A DNA stretch of 64,000 nt from NCBI GenBank assembly GCA_025353765.1, contig JANXOD010000041.1:23502-87501 (forward strand). The letters run 5' to 3'. The notes below the pieces were generated by a model. That model did no database searches, was not told the DNA's origin, and worked only from the letters and a program-made list of their open reading frames with translations. Both the position numbers and the translations under genes were made by a program. Below, piece after piece: positions 10,827 through 64,000 of this stretch (its first letter is position 1; each line of letters starts with the position of its first letter). Origin of the DNA: Sphingobacteriales bacterium. GTDB lineage: Bacteria; Bacteroidota; Bacteroidia; Sphingobacteriales; Sphingobacteriaceae.

Positions 10827-10843
10827 CTTATTTTAAAAAAATC

Positions 10844-10975: not shown

Positions 10976-10977
10976 TT

Positions 10978-11616: not shown

Positions 11617-11716
11617 TAAAAAAAGCAGCCAAGCTGTCAGTATACTATATCAGATTTCGGCTACTTAAAAACGACCTTCAACAGGTTTAAAAAAGAATAA
11701 GTGAAAAATGGACCTA

Positions 11717-38192: not shown

Positions 38193-38196
38193 GGGA

Positions 38197-41100
38197 CTAT
38201 CGTATTAAGTGAATAAATCCAGTCCTTTTTAAACCAGCTCCATCGTATTTCATCCCTTCCCATTCTAAACCATTTATATATTTAGCAGTAGCTTCCCATA
38301 TATACACCCCCTGGCTTACTGGTTCTCCATGATAGGTACCATCCCAGAATTCGTAAGGCTCTCCATCTTCATTGAGAATGGTTGATTCAAAAAATACCTG
38401 TCCAAATTTGTTAAAAATGCGAATGTGATATGAAAGAAGCCCTTTCCCTTTTAGCTTAAATATCTTCAATTCGGGTGTTTGAGACTCGGGCATGAAAGCA
38501 TTTGGAATATATAAGTTTCCGGGGGTGCCGCTGATATGTATAAACCGGTATGTACTATCAGAGCAACCTTGTGAGTTATAAATGGTAAGAGTTACTTTAA
38601 AAGTGCCGGTGTCTGCATAAGTATAGTCCGGGTTTTGTTTTTTTGATGTTCCTCCATCACCGAAATTCCACTTGCAAAGTACCTGATCATTTGTTGAACG
38701 ATCTGCAAAATTGAATTTAAAATTCGGAGCCCTAATTTCAGGTGAAGGTCCTACGTCAAATTTAGCTACAGGAGGGATAGCCAACTGTATATAATCTTCC
38801 ATAATTAAAGTATCAGTACATCCTGCTTTATTAGTAGCTATTAATTTTACTGTATAGCTAGGTTTGTTTTTACCATAAGTATGAATAGGATTTGTATCGG
38901 TTGATGTTAGGCCATCACCAAAGTCCCAAAAATATTGTATGGCTGATGTTGAGTGACTCTGGAATTGAATTGGCAATGGCGCACATCCTTTTGTAACAGT
39001 GGACCCAAATAATGCTTTTGGTTGCTCAAATACAGTAATTGTTTCTGTAGCGAGGGTGTCAGAACAACCGTTTGAAGCCTTTAATTTTACTAAAAATGTA
39101 CCTGATTTATTGAAGGTATGAACTACCGTTTCTGGTGACGAATTTGTTCTTGTAGAGTTCCCATCACCAAAATCATATTCAAATAAACTTGCTCCCGTAG
39201 AGTTATTAAAAAAGCGAACTGTAAAGGGTGCACAACCAGACTTTTCATCTCCGTTAACTACTAACTTAGGATCTACTGTACTTGGAGCAACCTTAATTTT
39301 AAACTCTTGGTAATCAGTTGCACAATTATTAGTAGCTGTTAGTTTAACAGTATAAGTTTTTAAAAGAGAAGTATTAAATATGTGTGATATTTTTTGTTTA
39401 TTAGTTGTGGTATAAGTTTGTCCATCACCAAAGTCTATTGTGTAAGTTGTATTCTCACCGATGGAAGTATTTGAGAAATTTACGGTTAATGGTGAGCATC
39501 CATTAGTTCTATCAGGAGAGATTATTGCTTTTATTTTATATTTAACCAATACATCACTAGTGTAGGTAGTGATTCCACAAATATTGATGTATTTTAATAT
39601 TACATGATATGTAGTATCCTTGCCGCTAGGGTTTGCTGCAAACGTAACCGGAACAGGTTGTATTGAATTAGAGGTTTGTCCATTTCCAAAATCCCAGTTA
39701 AAACTACCATCTGTTAACGAAGAAGAATTATTTGTAAATTTTAATGTTAAAGGCCCACATCCTTGTGTAATATCCTGACTAAAGCTGGCTATTGTTCCTG
39801 CTGCGGATTGGAATGTATGTTTAAACTCACTTGAACCACAACCCGATTGGCTACTTACGACTAGTTTGATGACTACACTTTGCGCTTTATCTGAAATAGT
39901 GTATCCCGGAAAGTTAACGCCTGTACCAATTTGAATATCGTTTGCAAACCAGCTATATTGTGCGTTTAGATTAGGGTCTACTTGTGCCTGAATATTTTGT
40001 GAATTTAAAACAAAAGGGGCACAGCCTTTATCATTTGTAAATTTATAGCTGACTTTTACTTCAGGATTTACTGTGATTAATATTTCATTACTTGTATTTT
40101 GCTGAGGACCAGAACAAATAGTTGAACTTACTATACGTCTAAAACGAGTACTAGTAAATAATGCATCGGGTTGGTAATTAATATCTTTTGAACCAAGGAT
40201 TGCAGCCCAATTTCCATCTCCATTGTTTCTTTCCCATTGATATTTGAAGTTCTCATCTCCACCATTCGGTGTACTACCTGTTAAAATTGTTGGTAACATG
40301 CCATAACATATAGTTTGATCTTTAAGGATAGTGTTAGATGTGATTGGCTTTTGAACAATAACTTCTAATATATTACTGTTCGAATTGCAAGTACCGGCAT
40401 AAACTGTTCTCCTAATAAAAATATTAGATGTAACCTGAATGGTTAAATCTTTTGTAATCTTACCATTTATATCTACCCAATTTGTACCGTCAGTACTACT
40501 TTGCCATACAAAATTTGTACCGTCAGTACTACTTTGCCCTAAAGAAGAAAGGTTGTTAGCACTGGTTGGACTCGTTCCCGTGATGATAGCGGATTGCCCT
40601 GAACATAGGCCTGTTGTACTTAAACTGATAACATTATTAGAAATAGGTGCATTGTTAATTAATATCATCTCATCATAAGAGGATGCACATGAATTATTTT
40701 GTGTAATAGTCCACCTGAAAATATAAGACTGGCCTGCCTGTAATCCTTTAACCAAGGTTTTACTTTGATTTGGAGATGTGATGTTTATTCCTGTTTGACC
40801 AGATATTAAAGACCATGTACCGGAAAATGTACCTGCATCATTAGCTTGAAGAGCATATTCAGATTCATTACATATATTGTCATCTGCACCTGCCTGAGCT
40901 TTTAGATTTCCAGGTAAAATGCTTCCCTGCACTGTTAGACTAATTGAAGAAGGCTCACCTTCACAACCAGAAGCACTTACCGGAGTAATGATATACGTAA
41001 CAGATGCATTGCCACTACCAGTGTTTTTTAAAATATCGGGAATAGCATTTACTGTTGAAGCTATAGTTTGTTGTGTATTACCGGTAATGCCAGCGTCAGC

Positions 41101-43692
41101 AATACTGGTCCATTTAAATTTTATGTTAGCTGCAGGAATACTGGTTGTATTGATAAAAGGCCATGAGATTCCGGCAGGTTGATCGCTGCAAATAACCTGA
41201 TTTGCCACCTGTGCACTAATAGCAGGTCTTGGACTTACAGTCACTTTTAACGTAAAAGGAGTACCAGGACATAAATTATTAATCGGAGTAATGATATAAG
41301 TTAGAAATGCCGGATTTGCAGGGTTAGTATTAACCAGAATATCATGAATATCACCACTTCCGCTCGCTGTATTGCCTTCAATAGATCCAGAACCTATACT
41401 GGTCCATATAAAAGTACTTCCGTTAATTGTTGCTATAGGCTGATAATTAAGCTGTGTCTGGGAACAAATGCTTATAGAGGATAAACTAGTAATTGAATTC
41501 TTTTTAGCAATGTTTAATATTAAATCATCAGTCACAATATCACATGGTAATGGATTAGATGTATTTGCCTGAATAGTTAATTTAAGAGAAGTGCCAATCT
41601 CTGATGGAGAAGGTGTGTAAGTAGGGTTTAAAACATCTCTTCCAGGAGAGAAAGTGCCTGTACCTCCAATCCATGAAATCTTAGTCGGAGCAGGGCCTTT
41701 TATTGTAGCAGTTAACTGTATTGGCGAATTATCACATAATGTTTGATCGTCACCTGCGTTTACCTTGATGTATTGATTGAGCTTAATAGTTTGGGTAATT
41801 GTTTTAGACGAACACTCGTTTCCGTATGTGAGTTTTACAATGTAAGTACTAAAGTCATCAAAGCTTATTATTGGATTTGCAGAGTTTGCATTTCCAGAAA
41901 CAAATGAATAAGTGCCACCACTAATATCCCATATATATGCAATGCTTTTTGAATTTACTGCATTAAAGGTAGGTTTATGATTGATGTCAGTTCCAAAATC
42001 AATAATTTTTGGCCCAAACTGGCAGTAGTTAATTTCTCCAGCAACAGGAAAGGAAACAGTAGGGTTACCTGCTATTGAAATAGGGTGATCTTTTGTTATT
42101 GTGCCACAGGAATTAGAAACTATTAGCCGTATCATATAGTTGCCGGGAGTACTGATTGATATTTTTGGATTTTTATCTGTAGCAGAAGGTGTAAATAAAA
42201 CTCCACTTATTACGGTGGTATTTGCTGCATTTCGAACCTGCCAAGCATAAGTGTAATCTCTACATATTGCTCCTGGAGTTGTTGTATTAACGATATTAAC
42301 TGCGTTGGGTAAACATATATTATTACTATTTAATGTAAAATCGGCGACAGCTGATGGTTCTATACATATGGTTTTTGTAGATGTATTTGGGTCACATGTA
42401 CCATTACTTACTTCAAGTGCTATTTTATATGTTCCTGGTGTTAAAAATGTATAGGTTAAGTTTGCATTTCCATTTGTATTTACAGGAATTTCATTAACAT
42501 ACCAGGTAGATTGTAAAGGATCAGCACATTCATCTCCAACAGCACTACTTGCGGATGTATTTGTAAATAATACCGGCTTGTTTACACATGCATAGGCTGC
42601 AAAACTAAATTTAGCAGTTGGCTTGTATAGAATTTTTGCATAAGCCGTTACATTTGGTTCATCGCAACTTGAAGTACTATTTACATATGGGCTTTTTAAT
42701 CTAATATTGATAGGAAATTGATTCACGTTACTTCCAGAGCCAATTCCACATGATGTTTGGTTATATAAATGCGTTAAATAACCATCTTTTTGAATAATTT
42801 CTGCTAATGTGTACTCTTGAGTTTGTCCATCTCCCCATGATAAAGTGTAGGTTATACCAGGAAAGTTTGTTAAAATGGATTGCGGATCGCTAGGGTTGGT
42901 ATTAATTTTAACCGAAAGATTATCAGGTAAGCATGATCGTAAAGCACCACTGGTACCTATACTTATATTATTTGTAGAATTAACAAGCTGGTATGATCTT
43001 GTACTGATAATACCATTAATATCTATAGACTTTGCAGATAAAGTATAGTAAGCTATATTTAAATTGATTTGGGCCACTCCTTCAATAAAATCAATTGCTC
43101 TAACAGTATGATTAACTTCATTAGTTAAATTGGCAGATAAGGAAGATCCAGTTGCAGAATTATTAAAAATATTTAATTTCCGATTATCCCCAAGTCCCCT
43201 AGTAATGTCTACTCCTGTACAAAAACCATAAATTAAATCATTTTTTAGCACATTATTTGGAGCACTTAATATGACAGAAGTACCGTTAATTGCTTTAATC
43301 TCAAAAGTGTTAGACGGATTGCTGGATAATGTAGGATTAGTAGAAACCACTTTTAGCCGATAATTAGCTCCGGCTAAAGTCCCTGCAGGTATTATGCCAT
43401 TTAAAAAAGACGTATAAAAACCATTTAATTGCCCGATCAGTATTCCAGGAGAAAAATTTCCATTAATATCAGAAAGGTAAAGTTCAAAACGTTGTGTTTT
43501 ATTATAAACAGTAGAACTTCCTATTTGTACAGGAATTGAAATGGTTGAACCAATACCGTATGGGCCTGCTTCTACAGAGCCCACAGTAATACTTTGCCCG
43601 TTTGCTCTCATGGAAATTAAAGCAATTGAAATTAATATAAGGAGGCCGAAACAGCGTTTCATAAAAAAGTTATGAGTTATATTTGTTTTCAT
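38197..43692 (-). CDS. giant PKD/Ig-repeat surface protein with type B T9SS C-terminal domain
   Basis: At least five PKD signatures (WDFGNGQ, IDFGDGQ, YDFGDGN, WDFGDGL, WNFGDGG). The C-terminus is a gliding-motility-type CTD (YIPNAF...WDGTY.G..V..GVYIW...G.IHLIR). Confidence 0.85.
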   Translation of the reverse strand: MKTNITHNFFMKRCFGLLILISIALISMRANGQSITVGSVEAGPYGIGSTISIPVQIGSSTVYNKTQRFELYLSDINGNFSPGILIGQLNGFYTSFLNGIIPAGTLAGANYRLKVVSTNPTLSSNPSNTFEIKAINGTSVILSAPNNVLKNDLIYGFCTGVDITRGLGDNRKLNIFNNSATGSSLSANLTNEVNHTVRAIDFIEGVAQINLNIAYYTLSAKSIDINGIISTRSYQLVNSTNNISIGTSGALRSCLPDNLSVKINTNPSDPQSILTNFPGITYTLSWGDGQTQEYTLAEIIQKDGYLTHLYNQTSCGIGSGSNVNQFPINIRLKSPYVNSTSSCDEPNVTAYAKILYKPTAKFSFAAYACVNKPVLFTNTSASSAVGDECADPLQSTWYVNEIPVNTNGNANLTYTFLTPGTYKIALEVSNGTCDPNTSTKTICIEPSAVADFTLNSNNICLPNAVNIVNTTTPGAICRDYTYAWQVRNAANTTVISGVLFTPSATDKNPKISISTPGNYMIRLIVSNSCGTITKDHPISIAGNPTVSFPVAGEINYCQFGPKIIDFGTDINHKPTFNAVNSKSIAYIWDISGGTYSFVSGNANSANPIISFDDFSTYIVKLTYGNECSSKTITQTIKLNQYIKVNAGDDQTLCDNSPIQLTATIKGPAPTKISWIGGTGTFSPGRDVLNPTYTPSPSEIGTSLKLTIQANTSNPLPCDIVTDDLILNIAKKNSITSLSSISICSQTQLNYQPIATINGSTFIWTSIGSGSIEGNTASGSGDIHDILVNTNPANPAFLTYIITPINNLCPGTPFTLKVTVSPRPAISAQVANQVICSDQPAGISWPFINTTSIPAANIKFKWTSIADAGITGNTQQTIASTVNAIPDILKNTGSGNASVTYIITPVSASGCEGEPSSISLTVQGSILPGNLKAQAGADDNICNESEYALQANDAGTFSGTWSLISGQTGINITSPNQSKTLVKGLQAGQSYIFRWTITQNNSCASSYDEMILINNAPISNNVISLSTTGLCSGQSAIITGTSPTSANNLSSLGQSSTDGTNFVWQSSTDGTNWVDINGKITKDLTIQVTSNIFIRRTVYAGTCNSNSNILEVIVQKPITSNTILKDQTICYGMLPTILTGSTPNGGDENFKYQWERNNGDGNWAAILGSKDINYQPDALFTSTRFRRIVSSTICSGPQQNTSNEILITVNPEVKVSYKFTNDKGCAPFVLNSQNIQAQVDPNLNAQYSWFANDIQIGTGVNFPGYTISDKAQSVVIKLVVSSQSGCGSSEFKHTFQSAAGTIASFSQDITQGCGPLTLKFTNNSSSLTDGSFNWDFGNGQTSNSIQPVPVTFAANPSGKDTTYHVILKYINICGITTYTSDVLVKYKIKAIISPDRTNGCSPLTVNFSNTSIGENTTYTIDFGDGQTYTTTNKQKISHIFNTSLLKTYTVKLTATNNCATDYQEFKIKVAPSTVDPKLVVNGDEKSGCAPFTVRFFNNSTGASLFEYDFGDGNSTRTNSSPETVVHTFNKSGTFLVKLKASNGCSDTLATETITVFEQPKALFGSTVTKGCAPLPIQFQSHSTSAIQYFWDFGDGLTSTDTNPIHTYGKNKPSYTVKLIATNKAGCTDTLIMEDYIQLAIPPVAKFDVGPSPEIRAPNFKFNFADRSTNDQVLCKWNFGDGGTSKKQNPDYTYADTGTFKVTLTIYNSQGCSDSTYRFIHISGTPGNLYIPNAFMPESQTPELKIFKLKGKGLLSYHIRIFNKFGQVFFESTILNEDGEPYEFWDGTYHGEPVSQGVYIWEATAKYINGLEWEGMKYDGAGLKRTGFIHLIR

Positions 43693-53784: not shown

Positions 53785-55650
53785 ATGAAAGCAAAATTTT
53801 ACATTTATTGTATTGCAATGCTCTTATCGGGTCAGGCATTTGCAACGCCTGCAATTTCTTCTGTTAGCCCGGCCAGTGCTTTTAAAGGACAAACGGTAAA
53901 AATAACCATTACGGGGACAGGTACTTTTTTTAATATTACCACTTCTGTGAGCCTTCAAATGGGTGCAGATGTTATTAAAGCCACCTCTTTTATGGCTCTC
54001 AGTAGTACCAAAATAGAAGCTACTTTTACTATCCCATCTAATGCAAAAACTGGTTTGTGGGCTGTGCTTGTTAACTGCCTTAACAATGGAACCTTATTGA
54101 AAAATAATATTTTCAATATATCATCAGTCGTTCCACCACCACCTCTAATAATATCTGTTAGTCCTGGAACTATTGTTATAGGTCAGCCCACAAAACTAAC
54201 TATTATCGGAGCTAATACTCATCTTGGAGAGAATTTTTCTAATGTAGAGTTTAAATTTGGCTCAACTGTAATTATTCCCAATAAATTAAAGCCAATTAGT
54301 GATACAAAGTTAGAAGCTATTTTTGATGTGATGCCTGATATAAAAACAGGATTATGTACGCTTACCTTATCATTATCAGGTCAAGTCGATGGGGTATTAT
54401 CCAAGAGTTCTAATTTAAATGTCCTACCGCCAGTCTTCACATTTAGTCCTAGTACTGCCATTCCTGGGCAAAATATAGAATTTACAATTACACAAGGAGA
54501 GGTATGTTCAAGTTGTAAATCTGCACAATTTCAGATTATGAAAAAAGGCGTAGACACCATATCTGCATATAGAAGATCGGATTTTCCTATAGTTGATAAA
54601 GCATTTGTGTCTATACCTAATGATGCAGCTCCGGGAGTATATGATTTTGCAATATGGTATTATTATTATCAGGATGGTAGTGGTGGGCCTTACTTATTTT
54701 ATCCTGTTACAAAAGTAAATTCCTTTACGATTTTGGCTCCGTCTATAACTGTTGCACCTAATACCACCTATCAGAGCCATAAAGGATTTTGGATAACCAT
54801 TAGTGGAACAAATACTCATTTTAAGGGAGCAAAAAAAATAAGTTTAACAAATGGAATGGATATCATTTATTCCACTGCTTTAAACTTTAATTCAAATACA
54901 AGCCTAAGTGCTAGTTTTGATATACCAGTAAATGTAAAAACAGGATTATGGGATATAAATATAATTGGGCCATGGGATCCAAACCCTATAGATGGGTTGA
55001 AAAAAGAAAATTTTGATTTGACTAAGGCAGGTTGTATCGTTATTAACCCACAACCTTTAATAACTACCAACATTCCCAATATACCTGTAAAACAAGGAGA
55101 AACCGTTAAAGTGGCTATTTCAGGTACCAATGCGCATTTTACTTCAGGCAATCTGCAGGTATCTATGTCACAAGGTGCTTCCATCATTACGGGTACCAAT
55201 AATATAGTTGGCAACAATAACTCTATGACTTCAACTTTTATTATACCCCTTTATGCCAACACCGGCTTATGGGATCTTAATGTACTGGAATTAAAAGATG
55301 ATATTATCACTAAAGCCAATAGTTTTACGGTTAATGCGGCCTCCACTCTTAGCCCTGGAAATCTTAGTCCTGGCATTCCGAAAGGGTTGGTTCAAAACAA
55401 TAGCATGAGTTTGTTTCCCAATCCTGCCAAAGATCAATTTATGCTAAAGACTAATTTTGAAAAGAACAATACATTGTTTACCCTTACTATCACCAATGCA
55501 CAGGGTAAAGTAGTTTATAGTTTGAAAGAAGCAGCTGCTTTGGGTGCATACCAGAAAACAATCGGGATTTCTGATTGGCCTCTGGGGGTATATTCTATAA
55601 ATATGAGCTCTCCACAAGGAAGTATTTTACAAAAATTTATTAAGGAGTAG
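53785..55650 (+). CDS. T9SS-secreted Ig/IPT-like repeat protein, paralog 1
   Basis: Signal peptide and about 5 repeats of the type (S/T)PxxAxxGQxVKxTIxGTNTHF...TGLWD. Type A CTD LFPNPAKDQF...GVYSINM...KFIKE. Confidence 0.7.
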   Translation: MKAKFYIYCIAMLLSGQAFATPAISSVSPASAFKGQTVKITITGTGTFFNITTSVSLQMGADVIKATSFMALSSTKIEATFTIPSNAKTGLWAVLVNCLNNGTLLKNNIFNISSVVPPPPLIISVSPGTIVIGQPTKLTIIGANTHLGENFSNVEFKFGSTVIIPNKLKPISDTKLEAIFDVMPDIKTGLCTLTLSLSGQVDGVLSKSSNLNVLPPVFTFSPSTAIPGQNIEFTITQGEVCSSCKSAQFQIMKKGVDTISAYRRSDFPIVDKAFVSIPNDAAPGVYDFAIWYYYYQDGSGGPYLFYPVTKVNSFTILAPSITVAPNTTYQSHKGFWITISGTNTHFKGAKKISLTNGMDIIYSTALNFNSNTSLSASFDIPVNVKTGLWDINIIGPWDPNPIDGLKKENFDLTKAGCIVINPQPLITTNIPNIPVKQGETVKVAISGTNAHFTSGNLQVSMSQGASIITGTNNIVGNNNSMTSTFIIPLYANTGLWDLNVLELKDDIITKANSFTVNAASTLSPGNLSPGIPKGLVQNNSMSLFPNPAKDQFMLKTNFEKNNTLFTLTITNAQGKVVYSLKEAAALGAYQKTIGISDWPLGVYSINMSSPQGSILQKFIKE

Positions 55651-55710
55651 TACATTAGACAAACCAAATGGTTAAACAAACCAAATTATTATATCATTTA
55701 AAAAACTCAC

Positions 55711-57552
55711 ATGAAAGCAAAATTTAACATTTATTGTATTGCAATGTTTTTATCCGTTCAGGTATTTGCAGTGCCTGTAATATCATCTATTACCCCCAAT
55801 ACGGCTTTTAAAGGACAAACATTAAAAGTAACCATTAACGGAACAGGCACTTTTTTCATGACTACGACTTTAGTGAATCTTCAAAATGGTGTAGATATAA
55901 TTAAGGCCAATTCTTTTACCGCACTCAGCAGTACAAAAATAGAAGCCACTTTTACTATACCTGCTAATGCAAAAATAGGTTTATGGGCCGTTACTGTGAA
56001 AGGCTTTACAAATGGTACTTTAACAAAAAATAATAGCTTTATTATAGCGCTGCCTCCACCCCCACCTCCGCCTTCAATAACCTCTGTTAGCCCCGGTGCT
56101 TTTGTTGGAGCAAAGGTAAAAGTAACCATTACCGGAATTAACACTCATTTCATGGGAACTTCTATAGTTAATCTTAAATTTGGTTCGGCTGTAATTAGTG
56201 CCAATAAAGACTACCTAATTAATCCAATTAGCGATACAAAGTTAGAAGCCACATTTTATATACCCTATAATGTAAATACAGGGCTATGGACTGTTACCGT
56301 AGAAGATAAGTTAGATGGTATTATATCCAAAAACTTTAATTTTAATATCCCATTACGAACGATTACTATTAGTCCCAATACTGCCATTCCCGGTGAAGAT
56401 GTAAGAACAATAATTATTGGAAAAAATTATGACTTTGCCCTGCATTACATGCTGAAAAAAGACAATGTATTGATTAATAGCAACTATTTTTATAATCACT
56501 ATCCTGATAGTGTAATAGTTTCTTTCCTAATTCCTAAAGATGCGGCTATAGGGTTATATGATTTGGTGGGAGAAAGTTGGAAGTTTGATGATAATACTAC
56601 AATTACTAAAGTAGGGACCTTTACAGTATTACTGCCCACAATCACTATTACACCTAATACAACCTATCAGAGCCGTAAAGGATTTGGAGTAGTCCTTACC
56701 GGAACTAATACCCATTTTAAGGGCACTAAAAAAATAGCTTTAACTAATGGTAATGGGATGGATAGTATTTACTCCACTACTTTAAATGTTAATTCAAATA
56801 CAAGCATGAGTGCTACTTTTAATATACCAGTAAATGCAAAGGCAGGATTATGGGATCTAAATATAATGGGGCCAGATTCAAGCCCTATATTTGGACTTGG
56901 AGGAGAAAAAGAAGATTTTGATTTAAGTAAAAAGAAATGCATCGTCATAAACCCGCAACCCTTAATATCAACTAATATACCCAATATACCGGTTAACCAG
57001 GGAGAAACTGTAAAAGTGGTTATTGCAGGCACTAATACTCATTTCACTTCGGGCAATTTGCTTGCTTTTATCTCGCAGGGCACATCTATGATCATTGGTA
57101 CTAATACAGTAGCAGCTAATAATATTTCCTTAACTACAACTTTTAATATACCCGCTAATGCTAATACAGGCTTATGGAATTTGAATGTGCAAGATTTAAA
57201 TGATGACGTGATCACTAAAGCCAATAGTTTTACGGTTAACGCAGTCTCCAATCTTAGCCCGGGTATTCCTGCTGGTTTTCAAAAGGGCTTGGTTCCCAAC
57301 AATAATATGATTTTATTTCCTAATCCTGCTAAAGATCAATTTACATTGAAGACTAATTTTGAAAAGAATAATACACTGTTTACTCTTACTATCACTAATG
57401 CACAGGGTAAAGTAGTTTATAGTTTGAAAGAAGCAGCTGCTTTAGGTGCTTACCAGAAAACAATCGGGATATCTGATTGGCCTATGGGGGTATATTCTGT
57501 AAATATAAGTTCACCACAAGGAAGTATTTTACAAAAATTTATTAAGGAGTAG
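55711..57552 (+). CDS. T9SS-secreted Ig/IPT-like repeat protein, paralog 2
   Basis: Same architecture as 53785-55650, lying 60 nt downstream. Contains a PPPPPPPS linker. The last ~85 aa are nearly identical to paralog 1. Confidence 0.7.
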   Translation: MKAKFNIYCIAMFLSVQVFAVPVISSITPNTAFKGQTLKVTINGTGTFFMTTTLVNLQNGVDIIKANSFTALSSTKIEATFTIPANAKIGLWAVTVKGFTNGTLTKNNSFIIALPPPPPPPSITSVSPGAFVGAKVKVTITGINTHFMGTSIVNLKFGSAVISANKDYLINPISDTKLEATFYIPYNVNTGLWTVTVEDKLDGIISKNFNFNIPLRTITISPNTAIPGEDVRTIIIGKNYDFALHYMLKKDNVLINSNYFYNHYPDSVIVSFLIPKDAAIGLYDLVGESWKFDDNTTITKVGTFTVLLPTITITPNTTYQSRKGFGVVLTGTNTHFKGTKKIALTNGNGMDSIYSTTLNVNSNTSMSATFNIPVNAKAGLWDLNIMGPDSSPIFGLGGEKEDFDLSKKKCIVINPQPLISTNIPNIPVNQGETVKVVIAGTNTHFTSGNLLAFISQGTSMIIGTNTVAANNISLTTTFNIPANANTGLWNLNVQDLNDDVITKANSFTVNAVSNLSPGIPAGFQKGLVPNNNMILFPNPAKDQFTLKTNFEKNNTLFTLTITNAQGKVVYSLKEAAALGAYQKTIGISDWPMGVYSVNISSPQGSILQKFIKE

Positions 57553-57571
57553 TATTAAAATTTAAATGAAT

Positions 57572-57602
57572 AGGCTGTCTCAAAAGGGCAGTCTATTTTT
57601 TT
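57572..57602 (+). terminator. rho-independent terminator
   Basis: Stem aggctgtc pairs with ggcagtct (two G-U pairs), followed by T7. Confidence 0.6.
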
Positions 57603-57669
57603 ATGCGCTGAATCTTCCTTTAGTGGAAACCTATAATTCCATTACCTTTGCACCAATTAAAATACTGAA

Positions 57670-58971
57670 ATGATACAGAAAGTACTGGAAAATCTAGAAA
57701 TTACCGCATTAAATGAGATGCAAAAAGCTTCTTTAACTGTGGCTAAAGAAAAAGATATCATCTTGCTTTCGCCAACGGGTTCGGGTAAGACACTGGCATT
57801 TTTGTTAACGATTTTAAATACCATCCAGAGCGATAGGGCAGGTATACAGGCATTAATCCTGGTTCCTTCCAGAGAACTGGCTCTGCAAATAGAACAGGTT
57901 TTCAAGCTGATGGGAACAGGTTTTAAAGTAAATTGCTGTTACGGTGGCCATCCCACGAAAGTGGAAAAAAATAACTTAATACAGGCACCTGCTGTATTGA
58001 TCGGTACACCCGGCCGGATTGCCTATCATATCCGTAATGAGAGTTTTAATACAGAATCCATACATGTTTTAGTGTTGGATGAATTTGATAAAGCACTGGA
58101 GTTTGGCTTTCAGGATGATATGTCTTTTATCATTAGTAAATTAAAAGGCTTGAAAAAGCGGATTTTAACTTCGGCGACTAAAATGATTGAAATTCCTGCT
58201 TTTACAGGAGTAATAAAACCGGTTGAAATTGATTTCTTAAAAGATAGCAACAGCTCGCCCGACCTAAAGTTAAAAGCGGTAATTTCTGATGCAGCCGACA
58301 AGCTGGATGCTTTATTTACCCTGATCTGTAAAATTGGAAGTAAAGCCACTCTTGTTTTTTGTAATCATCGGGATGCAGTAGAGCGTATTAGTGATTTATT
58401 ATGGGATAAGGGTTTGGCCCATGATATTTTTCATGGCGGGATGGAGCAGGAAGATCGGGAACGAGCTTTGCTTAAGTTCAGAAATGGCAGTCACAGGTTG
58501 TTAATTACAACAGACCTGGCTTCCCGTGGATTGGATATACCGGAAATTGAATACATCATTCACTATCAATTGCCGCATAATGAAGAAGCTTTTCTGCACC
58601 GAAATGGTCGTACAGCACGCATGAATGCCAAAGGAACTTCGTATGTTATTTTAACAGAAGACGAAAAGCCATCTTTTATACCTGATAAAACGGAGGTTGA
58701 AGAATTGCCGGAGCAGAATATCCTTCCTCAAAATACGCCTTGGGCAACGTTATACCTGGCAGCCGGTAAAAAAGATAAGGTGAATAAAATAGATATTGTA
58801 GGCCTATTGCTTAAAAAAGGTGAGTTGCAAAAAGATGAGTTGGGCTTAATTGAGGTGCTGGATTATTCATCCTATGCGGCTGTGAATCGTTCTAAAATAG
58901 ATCGTACAGTTACGTTGATTAAAAACGAAAAAATAAAGAATAAAAAAGTTAAAATTGAAGTCTCCAGATAG
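57670..58971 (+). CDS. DEAD-box RNA helicase with DbpA-like C-terminal RNA-binding domain
   Basis: Walker A SPTGSGKT, motif II DEFD, SAT, TDLASRGLD and HRNGRTAR. Has a basic C-terminal extension. Confidence 0.88.
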   Translation: MIQKVLENLEITALNEMQKASLTVAKEKDIILLSPTGSGKTLAFLLTILNTIQSDRAGIQALILVPSRELALQIEQVFKLMGTGFKVNCCYGGHPTKVEKNNLIQAPAVLIGTPGRIAYHIRNESFNTESIHVLVLDEFDKALEFGFQDDMSFIISKLKGLKKRILTSATKMIEIPAFTGVIKPVEIDFLKDSNSSPDLKLKAVISDAADKLDALFTLICKIGSKATLVFCNHRDAVERISDLLWDKGLAHDIFHGGMEQEDRERALLKFRNGSHRLLITTDLASRGLDIPEIEYIIHYQLPHNEEAFLHRNGRTARMNAKGTSYVILTEDEKPSFIPDKTEVEELPEQNILPQNTPWATLYLAAGKKDKVNKIDIVGLLLKKGELQKDELGLIEVLDYSSYAAVNRSKIDRTVTLIKNEKIKNKKVKIEVSR

Positions 58972-58977
58972 TACACC

Positions 58978-59208
58978 ATGAGCAATAACGATATAATGAA
59001 AAAGCTTCGCGTAGCGCTTCAGTTAAACGACGAAGAAATTGTGAACATTCTTAAACTGGCTAATTTTAATATCACTAAAAGCGAATTGGGAGCCATATTC
59101 CGTAAAGATGATCATCCTAACTTTAAGCCTTGTGGCGATCAGATTTTACGAAACTTCCTCAATGGATTGGTAATTTATAAACGGGGGCCTAAACCTGAAA
59201 AGGAATAG
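58978..59208 (+). CDS. DUF1456 (YehS-like) protein
   Basis: NNDIMKKLRVALQLNDEEIVNI...FLNGLVIYKRG matches the DUF1456 repeat pattern. Confidence 0.65.
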   Translation: MSNNDIMKKLRVALQLNDEEIVNILKLANFNITKSELGAIFRKDDHPNFKPCGDQILRNFLNGLVIYKRGPKPEKE

Positions 59209-59323
59209 TAATCGCTATTCGAAGTTTTCAAATGGAATCAGTATAGACATAGTCTTAGGCTACCATAAACAATCAATTTCAATAATCGCATCCAGTTCTC
59301 CAGCCAGAAGGCAATCTTATGCT

Positions 59324-59533
59324 GTGAGTAGGCATTTGGATAAGGGCAGAATTCGTCCGGGCGTTGTAAGTGAGTATTTGGACTCAGTCAATTGGCATTT
59401 GGATACTGTGAGCGAGCATTTGGACTCTGTCAGAAGGCATTTGGATACAGTCAATTGGCATCCGGGCGTTGTAAGCGAGCATTTGGACCCAGTCAATTGT
59501 CATTTGGGCCGTGTCAGCAGTCATTTTTTATGA
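59324..59533. repeat. about 10 tandem degenerate 21-bp repeats (core GTnAnnnnGCATTTGGAnnnn)
   Basis: Period 21 is seen by eye, and a 105-bp higher-order copy matches 59347-59400 to 59452-59505. One frame is open from GTG 59324 and gives the heptads V-S/N-E/W-H-L-D-S/T. Confidence 0.8.
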
Positions 59534-59763
59534 AATAAATCGCTTCTGTAGCTAGTTATATAGTAATTTTAAGCTATTGTAGCTGATTTTTGTGTTTAAA
59601 AAGTATATTTTGTTGTTTTTTTAGTCTATTGAGGATAAAAAGAGAGTAGTAAAATGAATTTGAATTAAAATGGGATGCAAAATTTATCTCAAAATAAGAC
59701 CATTCTGCAATTAATCCTTTATTCTTTACTCTTATGTCTTTCCAACAGCTCTAATCCTACTTT

Positions 59764-62700
59764 TTATTTACCCTTCATCATCGCAACCTGGGAACTGTAA
59801 TATCTCTCCAGAAAATGGTAAACGATGAGTTCATATTTTCGTTGTTGTGCAATAAACAAGCGATTCATATACATGTGAATATAGCTGGATAAGAGATCAG
59901 ATAGGCGTTCTTTTAAATTATCTTCCGGTAGTTTAGACAGAATAGCCTGAATAACATCTACGTTCATTTCTGAACGTAATTTAAATACAGTAACGGCTTC
60001 TTCAATGGCGTTTTTTGCATCTTCTTCGGCATTCATATGCGAAAAGATCTGTTGTTGCTGCTTCTTATATTTTTCGTTCAGTTGCTTTTGCAACGCAGGT
60101 TCTGCTCCAAATTCTTTAAAAAAGCCCGACTGTAAACTTTTAAATAATTCCTTTTTCTCAATCATAGTCAAATGGAAATCATCTAAAAGCATATCTATAC
60201 CGCGTAAAGCAAAGAACAACCGGTATTCTTCTGCATCTTCTAAGAGATTAATAAATCGTAATACTGAAAGACTGTCGTTAAAAAATAGAATTTCTGCTTC
60301 TTCTACCAGATCTGCACCGTAACGTTCCACTTCCCGGTTATAAGTATCCGAAACCACTTTATATAAGGTATTATCATCCAGGAGAGGCTGCAAAACAGTT
60401 GAGAATGCTTTTTGAACCTCCAATTGCTTATTAATATCTGTATTATGGAATCGTATTCTGAAATGAGAATGTTCATCATTGTAACGAAGAAAAAAGAATT
60501 TCTCAAATAATTGGTTTTCTAAGCCTTCTTCTATAAAAGGTAATACGGTTTCTTTTAATACTTTTTCTGCCGTTTTAGAACCACAGTAAACTTTAAAATA
60601 GAGCCATTCGCTATGCAATGAGAACTTCCTTTGAATGCTTTGTTCTGTTTTTTCTTTTTTAGCGGGAAGCGCATCTGTAACAGGTAAATCCCGGTAAACA
60701 GGAATAATGACTTCGTTGGTATAAGGATCGCCATGTACATCTTTAACCACGCAATTTTCTTCAGTAAACAGGAATTCGTTGAGTGTTATAGTCTTATGAC
60801 GTTTCAAATAATGTAAAAATAGCTCAATAGCTTGTGGATGTTCAAAGTCTATAAATAATTCATTATCCTGTTCGGCATAGGTTACTTTTTGTGGAATTTC
60901 CCATTTCTTTCGAAAAGACTGGAAATAATCTCCATAATCTTTAGCCTCCTTAGGTAAGTCTTTAATATCTTTTTCCTCAATTTTCCATTGTGCTTTTTGT
61001 ATGATCAGATTCTTATATACCACTCTTGGCAAATTTTTAAGCGTAGATAGAGATCCCCAATCCCAAACACTCGGGTGAGCAATGCCTTGCGATTGTAAAT
61101 CGCATAAAAACTTATAAATAGGCAAACTCTTGTACCCGAAATTATGCGCTGTGGTAAGCCTTGGAATGATCCGTTTGTTATGAGTTTTACTGCGCAATAC
61201 CAGTTTGTTGTTACTTATACTTACCAGGATATCATTTACAGGTATTTGATTCTCTGTGGCAGCTCCCGATTTACCCACATATGGAATTTCATAACCACGC
61301 AAAACAGGCCTCAATAGTATGTTGCCTATCCTGGCTTCTGGTAAATGGGCTATCTCTGCATAAATTGCTTCCGGATACTCTGCTTCTTCTGCTTTTAATA
61401 TTTCCCGGCTATAGTTGCAGAGCTGTTCATTTCCATGTGTAAACCTGCCTAAAAGATTTCCTGCTGAAGGGCCCCCAAAACCCGTTAAGGCAAACGTAAA
61501 GTGTTCCAAATTGAGTAAGCCATCCTCCTTCAGCAAACTGCCCATCAGGTACATGCTATTAGGGAAATGGTGATTTTCTACTTCTTTTTTAAAAGCCTTA
61601 AGCTCATCCTCATCAATCTCAATAAAAGGCTTTTGGTTTTTTAAATAATCATAATATTTAGATACGGTGTAATCTTGTATATAATCAACAGTACTCATCC
61701 TCTCCATTGTGCCACCACCAACAGCCAAATCATCTATCAATTCGCCACCACCAGCTGATCCATCATGCACGCCCGCATAACCTATTCCTAAATCTGCATC
61801 TAATGCTATTGAAAGTGGTACTTCAGCATCTTCATATTTGGAATAAAATTTAGTTTTAAACTCATCAAGCTCTGCATTTTTGCCTTTACGGGATAAATAC
61901 ATCAGGTCTTCTGCCTGTTTTACGATGGTATCTGTTAACTCTTTATTTATGCTGCTATTTTGAGTAGATAAAAAAAGATCAACCTGCAAGGTATTTTTAG
62001 GTATTTCTTTTACCATACCTAAATTTTTTAATTTCAGTTCTATTTCTTGGTAATAGTTAACTCCTTGCTTTGGATTTTGAATGAGATATTGAATTTTTTT
62101 AAGTTGACTTAGTAAATCTTCTACTCCAGGAAATGCTTCTAATTGTATTATTAGCTGGTCTAAAGGTTCTTTTCCTGTAATACAAGGCTCCAGTTCAGGT
62201 ACAAGCAGTTGGGAATCCCATAAACTTGCAATAAAATCTTTTGCTTCCTCTTCATTTACATTTTTGGTAGTTATAAGCAGCTTTGTTAATTCATCAATGG
62301 TTGCCCCGTTTTGTGCACATTTAAGAACATCTTGAATGTAATCTGTTTTCTCAATAGAAGTAAGCTGATAGTTACGATTATTATTTTTTATAAAATATTC
62401 TGCGTAACGAAAACTGCCTGGTAATTCGTACAAACTATTATTGGTGAAGAGTTTTAATTGATCCCTTATTTGAGGCAATTGGACCAACTCCTGTAAAATT
62501 CCAATCATATAGTTCATATCCAGGCGGGTGCTGCGAATATGCTGAGAACTTTCATTAAGGATAAGGCTTGTCTCCTCTTCTGTAAGAGTTGATAGGAAAC
62601 TCCCTGCAAAAGTGCCGTAAGGCGTACAACGTGTACAACTGCGTAACCAGTATTTAGCAAATGTAAGCTCTAATTTTGCTTTGTCTTTACCAGTTAGTTC

Positions 62701-62850
62701 TTCTTTCTTCTGTAATTCATTCCAAAAGTCGGGAGAGGATAAGTATAATCCTTCTTCTAACATGGGTTGTATGTTCTCCGAAAAATGATATGCCTTTTGC
62801 AGACTTTGCAAAGGGGAGCGCAATAAGATAAACTGGAAGGGATGAAGCAT
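59764..62850 (-). CDS. lanB: full-length class I lanthipeptide dehydratase (LanB)
   Basis: Block-by-block match to NisB as I recall it. The blocks are WLRSCTRCTPYGTFAG (RSTPFGLF), GRF, AEIAHLPEARIGNIL, PRVVYKNLIIQKAQWKI (PRLVFDEIVISPAKWKI), EWLYFKVY, FFFLRYNDEHSHFRIRF, EVERYG and MNRL. Both the glutamylation and elimination domains are present. Confidence 0.93.
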   Translation of the reverse strand: MLHPFQFILLRSPLQSLQKAYHFSENIQPMLEEGLYLSSPDFWNELQKKEELTGKDKAKLELTFAKYWLRSCTRCTPYGTFAGSFLSTLTEEETSLILNESSQHIRSTRLDMNYMIGILQELVQLPQIRDQLKLFTNNSLYELPGSFRYAEYFIKNNNRNYQLTSIEKTDYIQDVLKCAQNGATIDELTKLLITTKNVNEEEAKDFIASLWDSQLLVPELEPCITGKEPLDQLIIQLEAFPGVEDLLSQLKKIQYLIQNPKQGVNYYQEIELKLKNLGMVKEIPKNTLQVDLFLSTQNSSINKELTDTIVKQAEDLMYLSRKGKNAELDEFKTKFYSKYEDAEVPLSIALDADLGIGYAGVHDGSAGGGELIDDLAVGGGTMERMSTVDYIQDYTVSKYYDYLKNQKPFIEIDEDELKAFKKEVENHHFPNSMYLMGSLLKEDGLLNLEHFTFALTGFGGPSAGNLLGRFTHGNEQLCNYSREILKAEEAEYPEAIYAEIAHLPEARIGNILLRPVLRGYEIPYVGKSGAATENQIPVNDILVSISNNKLVLRSKTHNKRIIPRLTTAHNFGYKSLPIYKFLCDLQSQGIAHPSVWDWGSLSTLKNLPRVVYKNLIIQKAQWKIEEKDIKDLPKEAKDYGDYFQSFRKKWEIPQKVTYAEQDNELFIDFEHPQAIELFLHYLKRHKTITLNEFLFTEENCVVKDVHGDPYTNEVIIPVYRDLPVTDALPAKKEKTEQSIQRKFSLHSEWLYFKVYCGSKTAEKVLKETVLPFIEEGLENQLFEKFFFLRYNDEHSHFRIRFHNTDINKQLEVQKAFSTVLQPLLDDNTLYKVVSDTYNREVERYGADLVEEAEILFFNDSLSVLRFINLLEDAEEYRLFFALRGIDMLLDDFHLTMIEKKELFKSLQSGFFKEFGAEPALQKQLNEKYKKQQQQIFSHMNAEEDAKNAIEEAVTVFKLRSEMNVDVIQAILSKLPEDNLKERLSDLLSSYIHMYMNRLFIAQQRKYELIVYHFLERYYSSQVAMMKGK

Positions 62851-62980
62851 TATAGTATTTTAGAATAAAACAGATGTACAAGTTAAATGTAAAATAAGTA
62901 TTAACAATAATAATTTATTTTTTATCAGGAAATCAATTTATAGGAAGCTATCCAATATGAGAAGGGCCGCATGTTACATT

Positions 62981-62988
62981 CAAAATTA
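62981..62988 (-). promoter_or_regulatory. candidate Bacteroidota -7 promoter box for lanB
   Basis: The minus strand reads TAATTTTG (consensus TAnnTTTG). It lies between the lanA1 terminator and the lanB ATG, about 130 nt upstream of the ATG. Confidence 0.3.
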
Positions 62989-63011
62989 ATGTATTCGTAA
63001 AAGTATATTAA

Positions 63012-63043
63012 ACAAAAATCCCGGCTACAGAAGCAACTGGGAT
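63012..63043 (-). terminator. rho-independent terminator/attenuator between lanA1 and lanB
   Basis: The minus strand has ATCCCAG-12 nt-CCGGGAT (7 bp including one G-U), followed by TTTTTGTTT. Confidence 0.5.
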
Positions 63044-63115
63044 CATTCAAAATTTGCCAACTTATTTAAAACACATTGCAATAAGCCTTAACTATAGTAG
63101 TATCGAATTTATTCT

Positions 63116-63316
63116 TTAACTACATGGTGCTGAATAACACTTGCTATTTTTTGTTGCTTTAGTTGTACAATTATTTGCTGTTACTACACACGCTGCCTTA
63201 GTTTGTATCATCATTGCCTGCCCACCTTGTACTTTGATCATTTCTTCTTTCGTTAAGTTAGAGATCCTCTCCTTTTTTAACTGCAATTTTGTAGAGTCCA
63301 AGTTAATCTTCTTCAT
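63116..63316 (-). CDS. lanA: lanthipeptide precursor peptide 1
   Basis: The 66-aa product has leader MKKINLDSTKLQLKKERISNLTKEEMIKVQGG (INLD box plus double-Gly). The 34-aa core QAMMIQTKAACVVTANNCTTKATKNSKCYSAPCS has 4 Cys and 8 Ser/Thr. Lies directly upstream of lanB. Confidence 0.85.
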   Translation of the reverse strand: MKKINLDSTKLQLKKERISNLTKEEMIKVQGGQAMMIQTKAACVVTANNCTTKATKNSKCYSAPCS

Positions 63317-63342
63317 GATGTTCTAATTTTAGTTAATTCATT

Positions 63343-63352
63343 ATTAAATATA
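63343..63352 (-). promoter_or_regulatory. conserved -7-like box upstream of lanA1
   Basis: The minus strand reads TATATTTAAT 27 nt upstream of the ATG. An identical decamer sits at the same distance upstream of lanA2. Confidence 0.35.
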
Positions 63353-63478
63353 ACGATAATTGAATGCACAATGCGAGTATTTTGTAATATTTTTGTTACC
63401 TGTGAAATAATTTTTCTTTTAAGATTTATAAAAAATTTAGACTTTCTAACCTTTGAAAAACTTGGACTATAGTATACT

Positions 63479-63511
63479 AAAAAAGCCTCTCGTGATACGA
63501 AAGGCTTTTTT
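63479..63511 (-). terminator. rho-independent terminator after lanA2
   Basis: The minus strand has GCCTTTCG-tatca-CGAGAGGC followed by TTTTTT. It would also function on the plus strand. Confidence 0.65.
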
Positions 63512-63531
63512 ATCTTCAATCTTTTTTGAGA

Positions 63532-63702
63532 TTAAATATTAAGGTGGCAATCATAACCATTAGTTTGGCATTTGCTTGTTCCGCAGGTATTTGTATTAAA
63601 ACCCATTCCACCTTGTACTTTAACCATTTCTTCTTTTGTTAAATTAGAAATTTTTGCTTTTTTTAACTGCAATTTTGCAGAATCTAAATTAATTTTTTTC
63701 AT
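63532..63702 (-). CDS. lanA: lanthipeptide precursor peptide 2 (not in the ORF track, 56 aa)
   Basis: Hand translation gives MKKINLDSAKLQLKKAKISNLTKEEMVKVQGG-MGFNTNTCGTSKCQTNGYDCHLNI-stop. The leader matches precursor 1 at 28 of 32 residues. The core is unrelated and has 3 Cys and 5 Ser/Thr. Confidence 0.85.
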   Translation of the reverse strand: MKKINLDSAKLQLKKAKISNLTKEEMVKVQGGMGFNTNTCGTSKCQTNGYDCHLNI

Positions 63703-63729
63703 TTTCTTATTAGTTCTAGTTAATTAAAG

Positions 63730-63739
63730 ATTAAATATA
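63730..63739 (-). promoter_or_regulatory. conserved -7-like box upstream of lanA2
   Basis: The minus strand reads TATATTTAAT 28 nt upstream of the ATG. Further upstream, the GTAACAAAAA / TTACA(C)AAA blocks are also shared with the lanA1 upstream region. Confidence 0.35.
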
Positions 63740-63896
63740 CATGTAGCTCTCTAGGTAATGAAATCTTTTGTGTAAGTTTTTTGTTACTATAGAAAATAAT
63801 TTTTTTTTACAAAAAATAATACTTTGATTTTGTAAATAATAGAATAAGAATAGTAAGAAGATAGATAAAGAGTTATAGTTTTTGTCGTTTCTAAAA

Positions 63897-63930
63897 CTAA
63901 AAGCCTGGTAATATATTACCAGGCTTTTAG
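63897..63930 (-). terminator. perfect palindromic hairpin, bidirectional terminator
   Basis: ctaaaagcctggtaata / tattaccaggcttttag. It lies about 40-50 nt downstream of a minus-strand ORF that runs off the right edge. Confidence 0.6.
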
Positions 63931-64000
63931 TTTATTAGCAGACTTTTATATGTTGTTAAATTGAATAATTAATAACCTCTTAATGGATTTGGATTAATGT

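Follow-up and report, generated by a model that had tools for sequence, protein, structure and literature searches.

Organization of the locus

The last few kilobases of the window, by which we mean the whole 64,000-nucleotide stretch of DNA that was analysed, carry a gene for a class I lanthipeptide dehydratase (lanB), two precursor genes (lanA1 and lanA2) and the 3′-terminal stretch of another lanA paralogue, together with candidate regulatory elements (Table 1). The original prediction described a class I lanthipeptide locus in which a full-length LanB is accompanied by two precursors that join one leader to unrelated cores; that description passed the profile searches reported below, and the coordinates and sequences given for the three complete genes stand. 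Very probably, the locus forms the 3′ terminus of a class I lanthipeptide biosynthetic cluster that is chromosomal and of Bacteroidota type.

Table 1. Genes and predicted elements of the lanthipeptide locus (window coordinates)
Feature	Positions	Strand	Description
lanB	59764..62850	(-)	Full-length class I lanthipeptide dehydratase, 1028 aa
lanA1	63116..63316	(-)	66-aa precursor; leader MKKINLDSTKLQLKKERISNLTKEEMIKVQGG, core QAMMIQTKAACVVTANNCTTKATKNSKCYSAPCS; lant_leader_L1a/L1b
Palindrome GTAACA-N6-TTAC	63384..63399	(-)	Same element as at lanA2; 83 nt upstream of the lanA1 ATG
Predicted hairpin terminator	63478..63512	(-)	3′ of lanA2; -20.8 kcal/mol, z = -6.16, 0/200 shuffles as good (RNA fold)
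lanA2	63532..63702	(-)	56-aa precursor; leader of the same family as lanA1, core MGFNTNTCGTSKCQTNGYDCHLNI; lant_leader_L1b/L1a
Palindrome GTAACA-N6-TTAC	63772..63787	(-)	Candidate operator/promoter element, 16-nt imperfect palindrome; 85 nt upstream of the lanA2 ATG
Predicted hairpin terminator	63891..63938	(-)	3′ of the partial lanA; -26.2 kcal/mol, z = -6.85, 0/200 shuffles as good (RNA fold)
Partial lanA	63969..64000	(-)	3′ end of a further paralogue (...INPNPLRGY, stop), from translation; runs off the window end

The LanB dehydratase

The N-terminal glutamylation domain of LanB matches Lant_dehydr_N (Pfam PF04738) over residues 28-677 (E 1.5e-138, profile positions 2-648 of 649), and the C-terminal glutamate-elimination domain matches Lant_dehydr_C (Pfam PF14028) over residues 749-1018 (E 4.8e-61, profile positions 1-255 of 255). 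The protein had been taken for a NisB-type, full-length enzyme with both domains, and the two Pfam matches bear this out. The sequence motifs on which that assignment was based were all located, namely RCTPYGTF (74-81), PRVVYKNLIIQKAQWKI (608-624), EWLYFKVY (748-755), FFFLRYNDEHSHFRIRF (785-801) and EVERYG (840-845). Relatives of solved structure include PDB 9g04_A (E 4.6e-58) and MibB (5ehk, E 4e-27), and LanB identities are 84% in the nearest relative (L028), 57-62% in Taibaiella and 55% in Pedobacter lusitanus.

Thirteen residues are invariant in 20 of 20 homologues that are 25-62% identical to LanB: R70, D351, R469, R789, H796, R798, R800, R839, E840, E842, R843, H992 and R997; D111 is kept in 19 of the 20. 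R74 and T76 match 9g04, and the spacing of R70, R74 and T76 equals that of NisB residues 83, 87 and 89. The catalytic residues of NisB are R83/R87/T89, D121, D299 and R464, together with R786, R826 and H961. NisB was not recovered by phmmer at E <= 10.

Precursors with a shared leader and unrelated cores

Both precursors exceed the curated cut-offs of the NCBIfam models lant_leader_L1a (22 bits) and lant_leader_L1b (27 bits), LanA1 scoring 31.4 and 29.4 bits and LanA2 26.7 and 28.2 bits, respectively. The two were said to share a 32-aa leader, and 28 of the 32 residues, encoded by DNA identical at 79 of 96 nucleotides, are indeed the same. Codon differences between the leaders are synonymous in 10 cases and non-synonymous in 4, which indicates purifying selection on this part of the peptide. 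Each leader contains the motif LxLxKx5L, as LQLKKERISNL in one and LQLKKAKISNL in the other, followed by a segment ending in VQGG. Paralogues and a related genome conserve the leader-coding sequence and approximately 110 nt of DNA upstream of it, with identity ending at the GG codons. Judged by passage of the curated models and by this conservation, lanA1 and lanA2 are not chance ORFs.

The cores are completely different, as had been claimed, and are not alignable (global score -15). That of LanA1 comprises 34 residues, with four Cys (11, 18, 28 and 33) and eight Ser/Thr (7, 14, 19, 20, 23, 26, 30 and 34), whereas the 24-residue core of LanA2 has three Cys (8, 13 and 20) and five Ser/Thr (5, 7, 10, 11 and 15); on recheck, the Ser/Thr-to-Cys spacings reported earlier for both cores were correct. 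The computed core masses are 3566.65 Da for LanA1 (3422.56 Da with 8 dehydrations) and 2621.08 Da for LanA2 (2531.02 Da with 5 dehydrations).

Neither core has a detectable relative among 5.8 billion proteins or among 1.84 billion proteins. In the larger collection the relatives of LanA1 are its own paralogues only, and LanA2, compared exhaustively with 1.84 billion representatives by HMMER, gave leader-only matches to other LanAs. The lack of a similar core in these two very large collections is consistent with the proposal that the cores are unlike known lanthipeptides. The peptide sequences are new; the type of cluster is ordinary and already known to be common in Bacteroidota.

The palindrome GTAACA-N6-TTAC resides 82-88 nt upstream of seven lanA genes, counting those in the window, in the nearest relative and in a Logan contig (L032) described below. 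No terminator was predicted by RNA folding in the lanA1-lanB interval. Since every lanA is preceded by a conserved region of its own, and strong hairpins follow lanA2 and the partial lanA, the lanA genes are probably transcribed singly; lanA1, after which there is no such hairpin, would probably be co-transcribed with lanB.

The probable remainder of the cluster

No LanC is encoded within the 64-kb window. A 398-aa protein, P0122, matches the LanC family (Pfam PF05147, E 2.4e-37) and can be aligned with the cyclase structure 8byk at its GLSHG, AWCYG and CHG motifs; LanC enzymes are marked by Cys, Cys and His zinc ligands and a catalytic His, and on the strength of these sequence features P0122 is an intact stand-alone LanC with zinc-ligand motifs. 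P0122 is recorded on one contig of 125,589 nt, a length that is also recorded for the contig of the LanB, LanA1 and LanA2 of the window and of a 45-aa LanA (P0243). The lanC gene for P0122 is also found on L032, together with four lanA genes, and the sample from which L032 derives is also that of L001, which is 100% identical to window positions 57525-63923. Window positions 63931-63998 align at 80% with the 3′ end and terminator of an L032 lanA whose product ends in ...IYINPNPLKGGY.

L032 and the window do not overlap in sequence, and it is the equal 125,589-nt size, the common sample and the paralogy that suggest that lanC adjoins the window. With the size of the gap and the orientation modelled on the nearest relative, the presumptive order is lanA (73 aa)-lanA (72 aa)-lanA (64 aa)-lanC (398 aa)-lanA (45 aa), then a gap holding at least one lanA whose product ends in ...INPNPLRGY, then lanA2 (56 aa)-lanA1 (66 aa)-lanB (1028 aa). 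The four L032 lanA genes, lanC and the partial lanA at the window end thus point to a cluster with at least seven lanA genes, lanC and lanB. The locus as first described would then be only the 3′ end, with the cyclase gene and five or more additional lanA genes lying beyond position 64000.

These findings bear on whether the enzyme might serve another class of RiPP, either thiopeptide-type or consisting of dehydro-amino-acid peptides that lack thioether rings and whose Cys are disulfide-bonded or free. The C-terminal domain of LanB matches TIGR03891 (NCBIfam, E 1.2e-59), a model named for thiopeptide-type bacteriocin biosynthesis; a number of LanB loci in Bacteroidota lack a LanC within 10 kb, and leader-type peptides beside some of these (L008, L019 and L020) have Cys-free cores. 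However, TIGR03891 is an elimination-domain model common to all LanBs, the annotated neighbours include no YcaO, cyclodehydratase or pyridine synthase, a LanC situated among lanA genes is recorded on a contig of the same 125,589-nt length, and Cys lies downstream of Ser/Thr in all six fully seen cores, which together make another RiPP class highly improbable. A thiopeptide or split-LanB pathway was rejected on the grounds that LanB is a single 1028-aa protein and that neither a YcaO nor a [4+2] pyridine synthase is found among the annotated neighbours.

Export and leader removal

A leader ending in GG implies a C39 peptidase-ABC exporter. Neither this transporter nor an HlyD protein is encoded within the 64-kb window, whose only ABC genes, lying over 47 kb from the locus, specify a pair of generic ATPase subunits. 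At the far end of the cluster, the 9 kb of sequence upstream of the lanA array in L032 likewise has no transporter gene, so neither region explains how the leader is removed and the peptides are exported. The C39-ABC exporter is also absent from the L032 and L028 contigs, and is encoded at five related loci (L002-L004, L030 and L031). Lanthipeptide proteases encoded away from the cluster have been described in other systems (PMC8960859).

In the nearest relative the order is lanA-lanC-lanA-lanA-lanA-lanB, all on one strand, with lanB split by a frameshift into 415- and 599-aa parts, a break that may stem either from misassembly or from decay of that lineage's system. More distant relatives have the order lanA-lanC-lanB-C39 ABC-HlyD, and one relative with a 62% identical LanB (L029) has a lone LanB among housekeeping genes. 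The window locus could likewise be an orphan or decaying remnant, its pathway incomplete for want of an exporter and protease or because the cyclase is inactive on the peptides, yielding either no mature product or linear dehydrated peptides only. Such a remnant would fit the missing C39-ABC and HlyD genes in the window and L032, given that most relatives have both directly after lanB, as well as the lone and frameshifted lanB genes just described and the mostly cryptic state reported for Gram-negative lanthipeptide operons (PMC11270710). Yet the window lanB is an intact ORF with all of the family-invariant residues, the leaders are under purifying selection, promoter-region motifs and terminators are retained for the lanA genes, lanC is intact with its zinc-ligand motifs, and a protease encoded outside the cluster has the precedent cited above, so that we consider a remnant unlikely.

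Comparison with known systems

A group of Bacteroidetes class I LanAs with an LxLxKx5L leader and GG is known from abundant clusters, which often encode a C39 protease (Walker et al. 2020, PMC7268733), and models for this leader type exist already (NCBIfam NF038153/NF038158; Pfam PF28317, Lant_leader_dom). The LQLKKxxISNL segment fits the LxLxKx5L motif exactly, the leaders end in GG and they score above the curated cut-offs; the C39 protease frequent in that group, by contrast, was not seen in the window or L032.

Pedobacter lusitanus NL19 offers a close comparison, having a full-length LanB 55% identical to that of the window (P0057), a LanC 48% identical to the LanC of the nearest relative (P0137) and a leader, MKKIKLNSERLRLKKEKVASLTTEQMSKAYGG, that scores 59 bits with the leader HMM built here, with a GG end and Cys/Ser/Thr-rich cores. 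The P. lusitanus locus L030, which may not be the Ped15 cluster itself, has one lanA followed by lanC-lanB-C39 ABC-HlyD, whereas here there are at least seven lanA genes, lanC amid them, lanB last and no transporter seen, and the cores are unrelated. As cited in later papers, PedA15.1 and PedA15.2 of NL19 are class I lanthipeptides (Bothwell et al. 2021, in PMC12328550 and PMC11270710) that were dehydrated and cyclised in E. coli (PMC11270710). ChmA (Chryseobacterium sp. OV715) and RuiA (Runella limosa) were also dehydrated and cyclised in E. coli, where supplying GluRS/tRNA(Glu) of the producer gave 7 dehydrations and 3 thioether rings (PMC9993889); by description, these are likewise Bacteroidota LanA/LanB/LanC systems, with different cores.

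With nisin the system shares a two-enzyme chemistry, in which a tRNA-dependent LanB dehydratase and a LanC cyclase modify a precursor bearing a leader, but the nisin pathway has one precursor and an FNLD-box leader cut by the subtilisin-like NisP, neither of which applies here. The lipid II-binding motif of nisin and its immunity system (LanFEG/LanI) are likewise missing. The pinensins, isolated from their native producer Chitinophaga pinensis, are Bacteroidota class I lanthipeptides too, but their dehydratase is split (PinB1/PinB2) instead of a single polypeptide, and PinB1/PinB2 are only distantly related to LanBs of the Ped/Tln/Vds type (PMC9680876). The class II prochlorosins provide a functional analogy only: one enzyme set serves numerous precursors, conserved in the leader and hypervariable in the core, but in cyanobacteria, with a Nif11-type leader and a bifunctional LanM (ProcM) whose dehydratase is not homologous.

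Proposed pathway and implications

For the biosynthetic cluster that we favour, established class I biochemistry suggests a sequence of steps. LanB would bind the shared LxLxKx5L leader and glutamylate Ser/Thr of the core from glutamyl-tRNA(Glu), and its C-terminal domain would eliminate glutamate to give Dha and Dhb. Addition of core Cys thiols by the zinc-dependent LanC would then close (methyl)lanthionine rings, of which LanA1 could carry at most 4 and LanA2 at most 3, and a C39 peptidase-ABC exporter encoded outside the cluster would cut the leader after Gly-Gly. The sequence data show the gene identities, the leader family and the conservation, and give the terminators as predicted folds; from these we infer that lanC adjoins the window, and also the modification of all the precursors, the ring patterns, export and a biological activity.

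More tentatively, it is possible, if somewhat doubtful as a whole, that one LanB/LanC pair processes at least seven precursors that share a leader but have unrelated cores, that each lanA is expressed from a GTAACA-N6-TTAC promoter/operator cassette of its own, and that there is no dedicated exporter or protease, the products being matured by an unlinked PCAT or acting inside the producer or its periplasm.

Current understanding is unchallenged by the cluster, since the enzyme family, the leader type and their prevalence in Bacteroidota had all been described by 2020. What it adds is at least six new, fully readable lanthipeptide cores, two of them within the window, and a compact case in which a single class I enzyme pair meets many substrates that differ in sequence; any tractable cluster has some value for studies of enzyme promiscuity and bioactivity. 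If the tentative reading is true, the action of one pair on many cores would be the class I equivalent of the combinatorial biosynthesis seen with prochlorosins.

An intact class I dehydratase

The product of lanB had been taken for a class I lanthipeptide dehydratase with both domains, and this assignment is borne out by Pfam: Lant_dehydr_N covers residues 28-677 (E 1.5e-138, profile positions 2-648 of 649) and Lant_dehydr_C covers residues 749-1018 (E 4.8e-61, whole profile). The LanB motifs named in the original prediction are present at residues 74-81, 608-624, 748-755, 785-801 and 840-845. Because NisB was not recovered by phmmer among matches in the PDB, even at E <= 10, the catalytic residues were judged by invariance within the family, using an alignment of this LanB with 19 homologues at 25-62% identity. 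Across these 20 sequences, R70, D351 and R469 are invariant in the N-terminal domain, where D111 is kept in all but one, and R789, H796, R798, R800, R839, E840, E842, R843, H992 and R997 are invariant in the C-terminal domain. The spacing of R74, T76 and the conserved positions presumably corresponds to that of the residues probed by mutagenesis in NisB. R74 and T76, which belong to the RxTPxG motif, also agree with the solved LanB-type structure 9g04.

Two precursors with one leader and unrelated cores

The ORF list confirms the coordinates of two small genes on the upstream side of lanB and on the same strand (see table). Their products share a leader in which 28 of 32 residues are identical, as first noted, and both score above the curated cut-offs of the NCBIfam class I leader models NF038153 and NF038158. 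In the leader DNA 79 of 96 bases are identical, and the codon differences between lanA1 and lanA2 are 10 synonymous versus 4 non-synonymous; the leader is therefore maintained by selection and does not merely reflect a recent duplication. Past the Gly-Gly the two peptides cannot be aligned, in line with the claim of unrelated cores, and identity likewise stops at the GG codons when the genes are aligned with their paralogues as DNA.

When LanA1 was the query of a word-indexed search, the only matches were LanA1 itself, LanA2 and P0243, a 45-aa LanA. LanA2 was compared exhaustively, by HMMER, with 1.84 billion cluster representatives, which yielded 15 proteins, namely LanA1, twelve other LanAs that match through the leader only, and two repeat proteins. 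The latter, P0244 (2399 aa, RTX-like) and P0246, seemed to match strongly and were rejected as relatives of LanA2, the similarity being compositional only. As the searches gave only paralogues, leader-only LanA matches and the two repeat proteins, the collections searched, which include NCBI proteins of characterised systems, contain no detectable relative of either core, with the caveat that small ORFs are frequently uncalled in metagenomes.

Features of the locus and its surroundings
Feature	Position	Strand	Description
DbpA-type DEAD-box helicase	57670-58971	+	converges on lanB
DUF1456	58978-59208	+	converges on lanB
lanB	59764-62850	-	1028-aa ORF (ORF list)
lanA1	63116-63316	-	66-aa ORF (ORF list)
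lanA2	63532-63702	-	56-aa ORF (ORF list)
Palindrome G[TC]AACA-N6-TTAC	window 63772-63787 and 63384-63399; L032 8807, 11181; L028 5323, 7183, 7875		motif search

Partner genes and the extent of the cluster

When the ORFs of the window were searched by phmmer with the LanC, C39 peptidase-ABC exporter, HlyD, S41 peptidase, LytTR and histidine kinase proteins of related clusters, none of these was found, and the sole matches were two ABC ATPase subunits of a generic kind, both over 47 kb from the locus. The window is therefore without a cyclase, leader-cleaving exporter or regulator for this locus. Such a gene set could be that of an incomplete or cryptic remnant of the pathway; the dehydratase is nevertheless full-length with its invariant residues in place, a probable cyclase gene is described below, and we consider a remnant unlikely.

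Only 298 nt upstream of lanA2 fall within the window, and at its edge a minus-strand ORF ends in ...INPNPLRGY followed by a stop. This terminus and its terminator align at about 80% with the 3' ends of lanA genes on L032, a Logan (short-read) contig, whose products end in ...IYINPNPLKGGN and ...IYINPNPLKGGY. An exact 38-mer scan of metagenome contigs for sequence past position 64000 gave no match, and look-ups with LanB and LanA2 returned only L001, a 6.4-kb Logan contig that is 100% identical to window positions 57525-63923 and ends at the last of these.

L032 encodes P0122, a 398-aa protein that is the second-best match (74% identical) to the LanC of the nearest relative, L028, in a collection of 5.8 billion proteins. 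It belongs to Pfam LANC_like (E 2.4e-37), and its GLSHG, AWCYG and CHG motifs align with the cyclase structure 8byk. The only long contig recorded for P0122 is 125,589 nt, the same figure as for LanB (P0001), LanA1 (P0241) and LanA2 (P0242), and P0243 is likewise recorded on a contig of this length. L032 and L001 come from one sample, SRR23617177. On a single strand, L032 carries lanA (73 aa), lanA (72), lanA (61/64), lanC and lanA (45), the last of these 45 nt from the contig end; megablast found no match to L032 inside the window, as expected if this contig lies past position 64000. We conclude that the cluster probably comprises at least seven lanA genes, lanC and lanB, with the window locus as its last three genes. 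The adjacency and orientation of L032 and the window, which share no overlapping sequence, we infer from the equal contig figure, the common sample, paralogy and the layout of L028. In the short-read assemblies, the breaks evidently fell at the leader/promoter repeats. The genes upstream of the L032 lanA array diverge from it; three of them code for T9SS cargo proteins, and the others for an isopentenyl transferase, an FMN dehydrogenase and a 262-aa protein without a match in Pfam. There is no transporter among the annotated genes on this side.

Regulatory elements

About 110 nt of conserved DNA precede each lanA. For seven of these genes, from the window, L032 and L028, this DNA includes a 16-nt imperfect palindrome 82-88 nt ahead of the start codon. 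The palindrome may serve some regulator as an operator or promoter element. Related clusters have a LytTR/histidine-kinase pair close by, whereas the window locus, which has the palindrome, has none nearby. RNA folding predicts strong hairpin terminators after lanA2 and after the partial lanA (the latter between lanA2 and the window edge; -26.2 kcal/mol, z -6.85), which a simple terminator scan had missed. Folding detected no such hairpin after lanA1, and read-through from lanA1 into lanB is therefore likely. A sigma-70 consensus scan gave 19 matches versus 19.9 expected, with a consensus that does not cover Bacteroidota promoters.

Genomic surroundings

The genes downstream of lanB converge on it. 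Between DUF1456 and the stop codon of lanB (59317-59533), a 21-nt unit (consensus GCATTTGGACACAGTCAATTG) is repeated in tandem about 10 times. The array looks GC-richer than its flanks and gives 7-aa repeats in every reading frame. Read on the lanB strand, these are Ser/Thr/Cys-rich SKCxLTx heptads with a TTG start and no leader. L028 and all the other loci lack this 21-nt repeat, which has neither an Rfam match nor an RNA-fold signal (z +0.9).

Elsewhere the window is unremarkable chromosomal DNA of Bacteroidota type, which also encodes several Por_Secre_tail-domain proteins, ClpP/ClpX, trigger factor, Dxr and an RseP-type protease. At 37173-43692, the gene for an 1831-aa PKD-domain protein is directly followed by that for a PorP/SprF-family T9SS membrane protein; this cargo/PorP pair is typical of Bacteroidota and confirms the phylum. 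Tandem paralogues for secreted proteins of about 575-620 aa with a T9SS C-terminal sorting domain border the lanthipeptide cluster region on both sides (window 53785-57552, where they additionally carry an MG2 domain, and L032 53-5424). Rfam found only two tRNA-Leu genes in the whole window, and only sub-threshold chance matches in 58900-64000 (U6, 24 bits versus a cut-off of 44; Phe_leader).

Related loci and known class I systems

Scanning species-representative genomes turned up 26 LanB loci, of which the best are in Taibaiella (57-59% identity). A large protein search added P0098 (a 599-aa LanB fragment, 84% identical), many proteins at 55-62%, and the Pedobacter lusitanus LanB (55%). Taibaiella and P. 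lusitanus, among others, show the canonical order lanA(s)-lanC-lanB-C39 peptidase ABC transporter-HlyD; genes for an S41 peptidase and a LytTR two-component system often lie nearby. L028 (MAG GCA_965192235.1) reads lanA-lanC-lanA-lanA-lanA-lanB on one strand, with no transporter after lanB; its lanB (8675-11771) is split into 415-aa and 599-aa ORFs, either by an assembly frameshift or as a pseudogene. P. lusitanus has a second LanB gene (L030 21660-23108; 1047 aa), which lies some 8.5 kb from the first cluster and is encoded on the other strand.

LanC is not found within 10 kb of LanB at three Chryseobacterium loci (L008, L019, L020), one of Hymenobacter (L007) and one of Flavobacterium (L012). 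The Chryseobacterium loci have GG-leader peptides with Cys-free cores, and LanC-less loci of this kind suggest a LanB-only subgroup making dehydrated linear peptides. For the present cluster, to which L032 probably contributes a LanC, a non-lanthionine outcome is very improbable. At another locus (L029 10001-13123), a full-length LanB (62% identical) is solitary, surrounded by housekeeping genes; neither LanC nor LanA is called within 8-10 kb, and the leader HMM has no match there.

Nearly one quarter of class I LanCs are found in Bacteroidetes, where a number of LanAs have LxLxKx5L in place of FxLD, many such leaders end in Gly-Gly, and the clusters often include a C39 protease gene (Walker et al., 2020; PMC7268733). 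The window leaders fit the LxLxKx5L motif exactly. Characterised Gram-negative examples include pinensins, PedA15.1/2, ChmA, RuiA, PciA, thalassomonasins, pseudorosins and viridisins, most of them obtained through heterologous expression only and with no known activity (PMC11270710; PMC9993889; PMC9680876). In view of the leader motif, the LanB/LanC type and these precedents, the locus belongs to an already known kind of class I lanthipeptide cluster. The relatives sampled have 1-4 precursors; the present number (at least seven), together with the position of lanC between lanA genes, is mildly unusual, as is the absence of a clustered PCAT (the C39-ABC exporter) and HlyD, common to this locus and L028.

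Predicted pathway

The standard class I pathway is much the most probable reading: LanB would glutamylate the precursor core and then catalyse elimination, LanC would cyclise the product, and an unlinked PCAT would cleave after the GG. The locus is real and its peptides are new in sequence, and nothing about it would be unexpected to a RiPP specialist.
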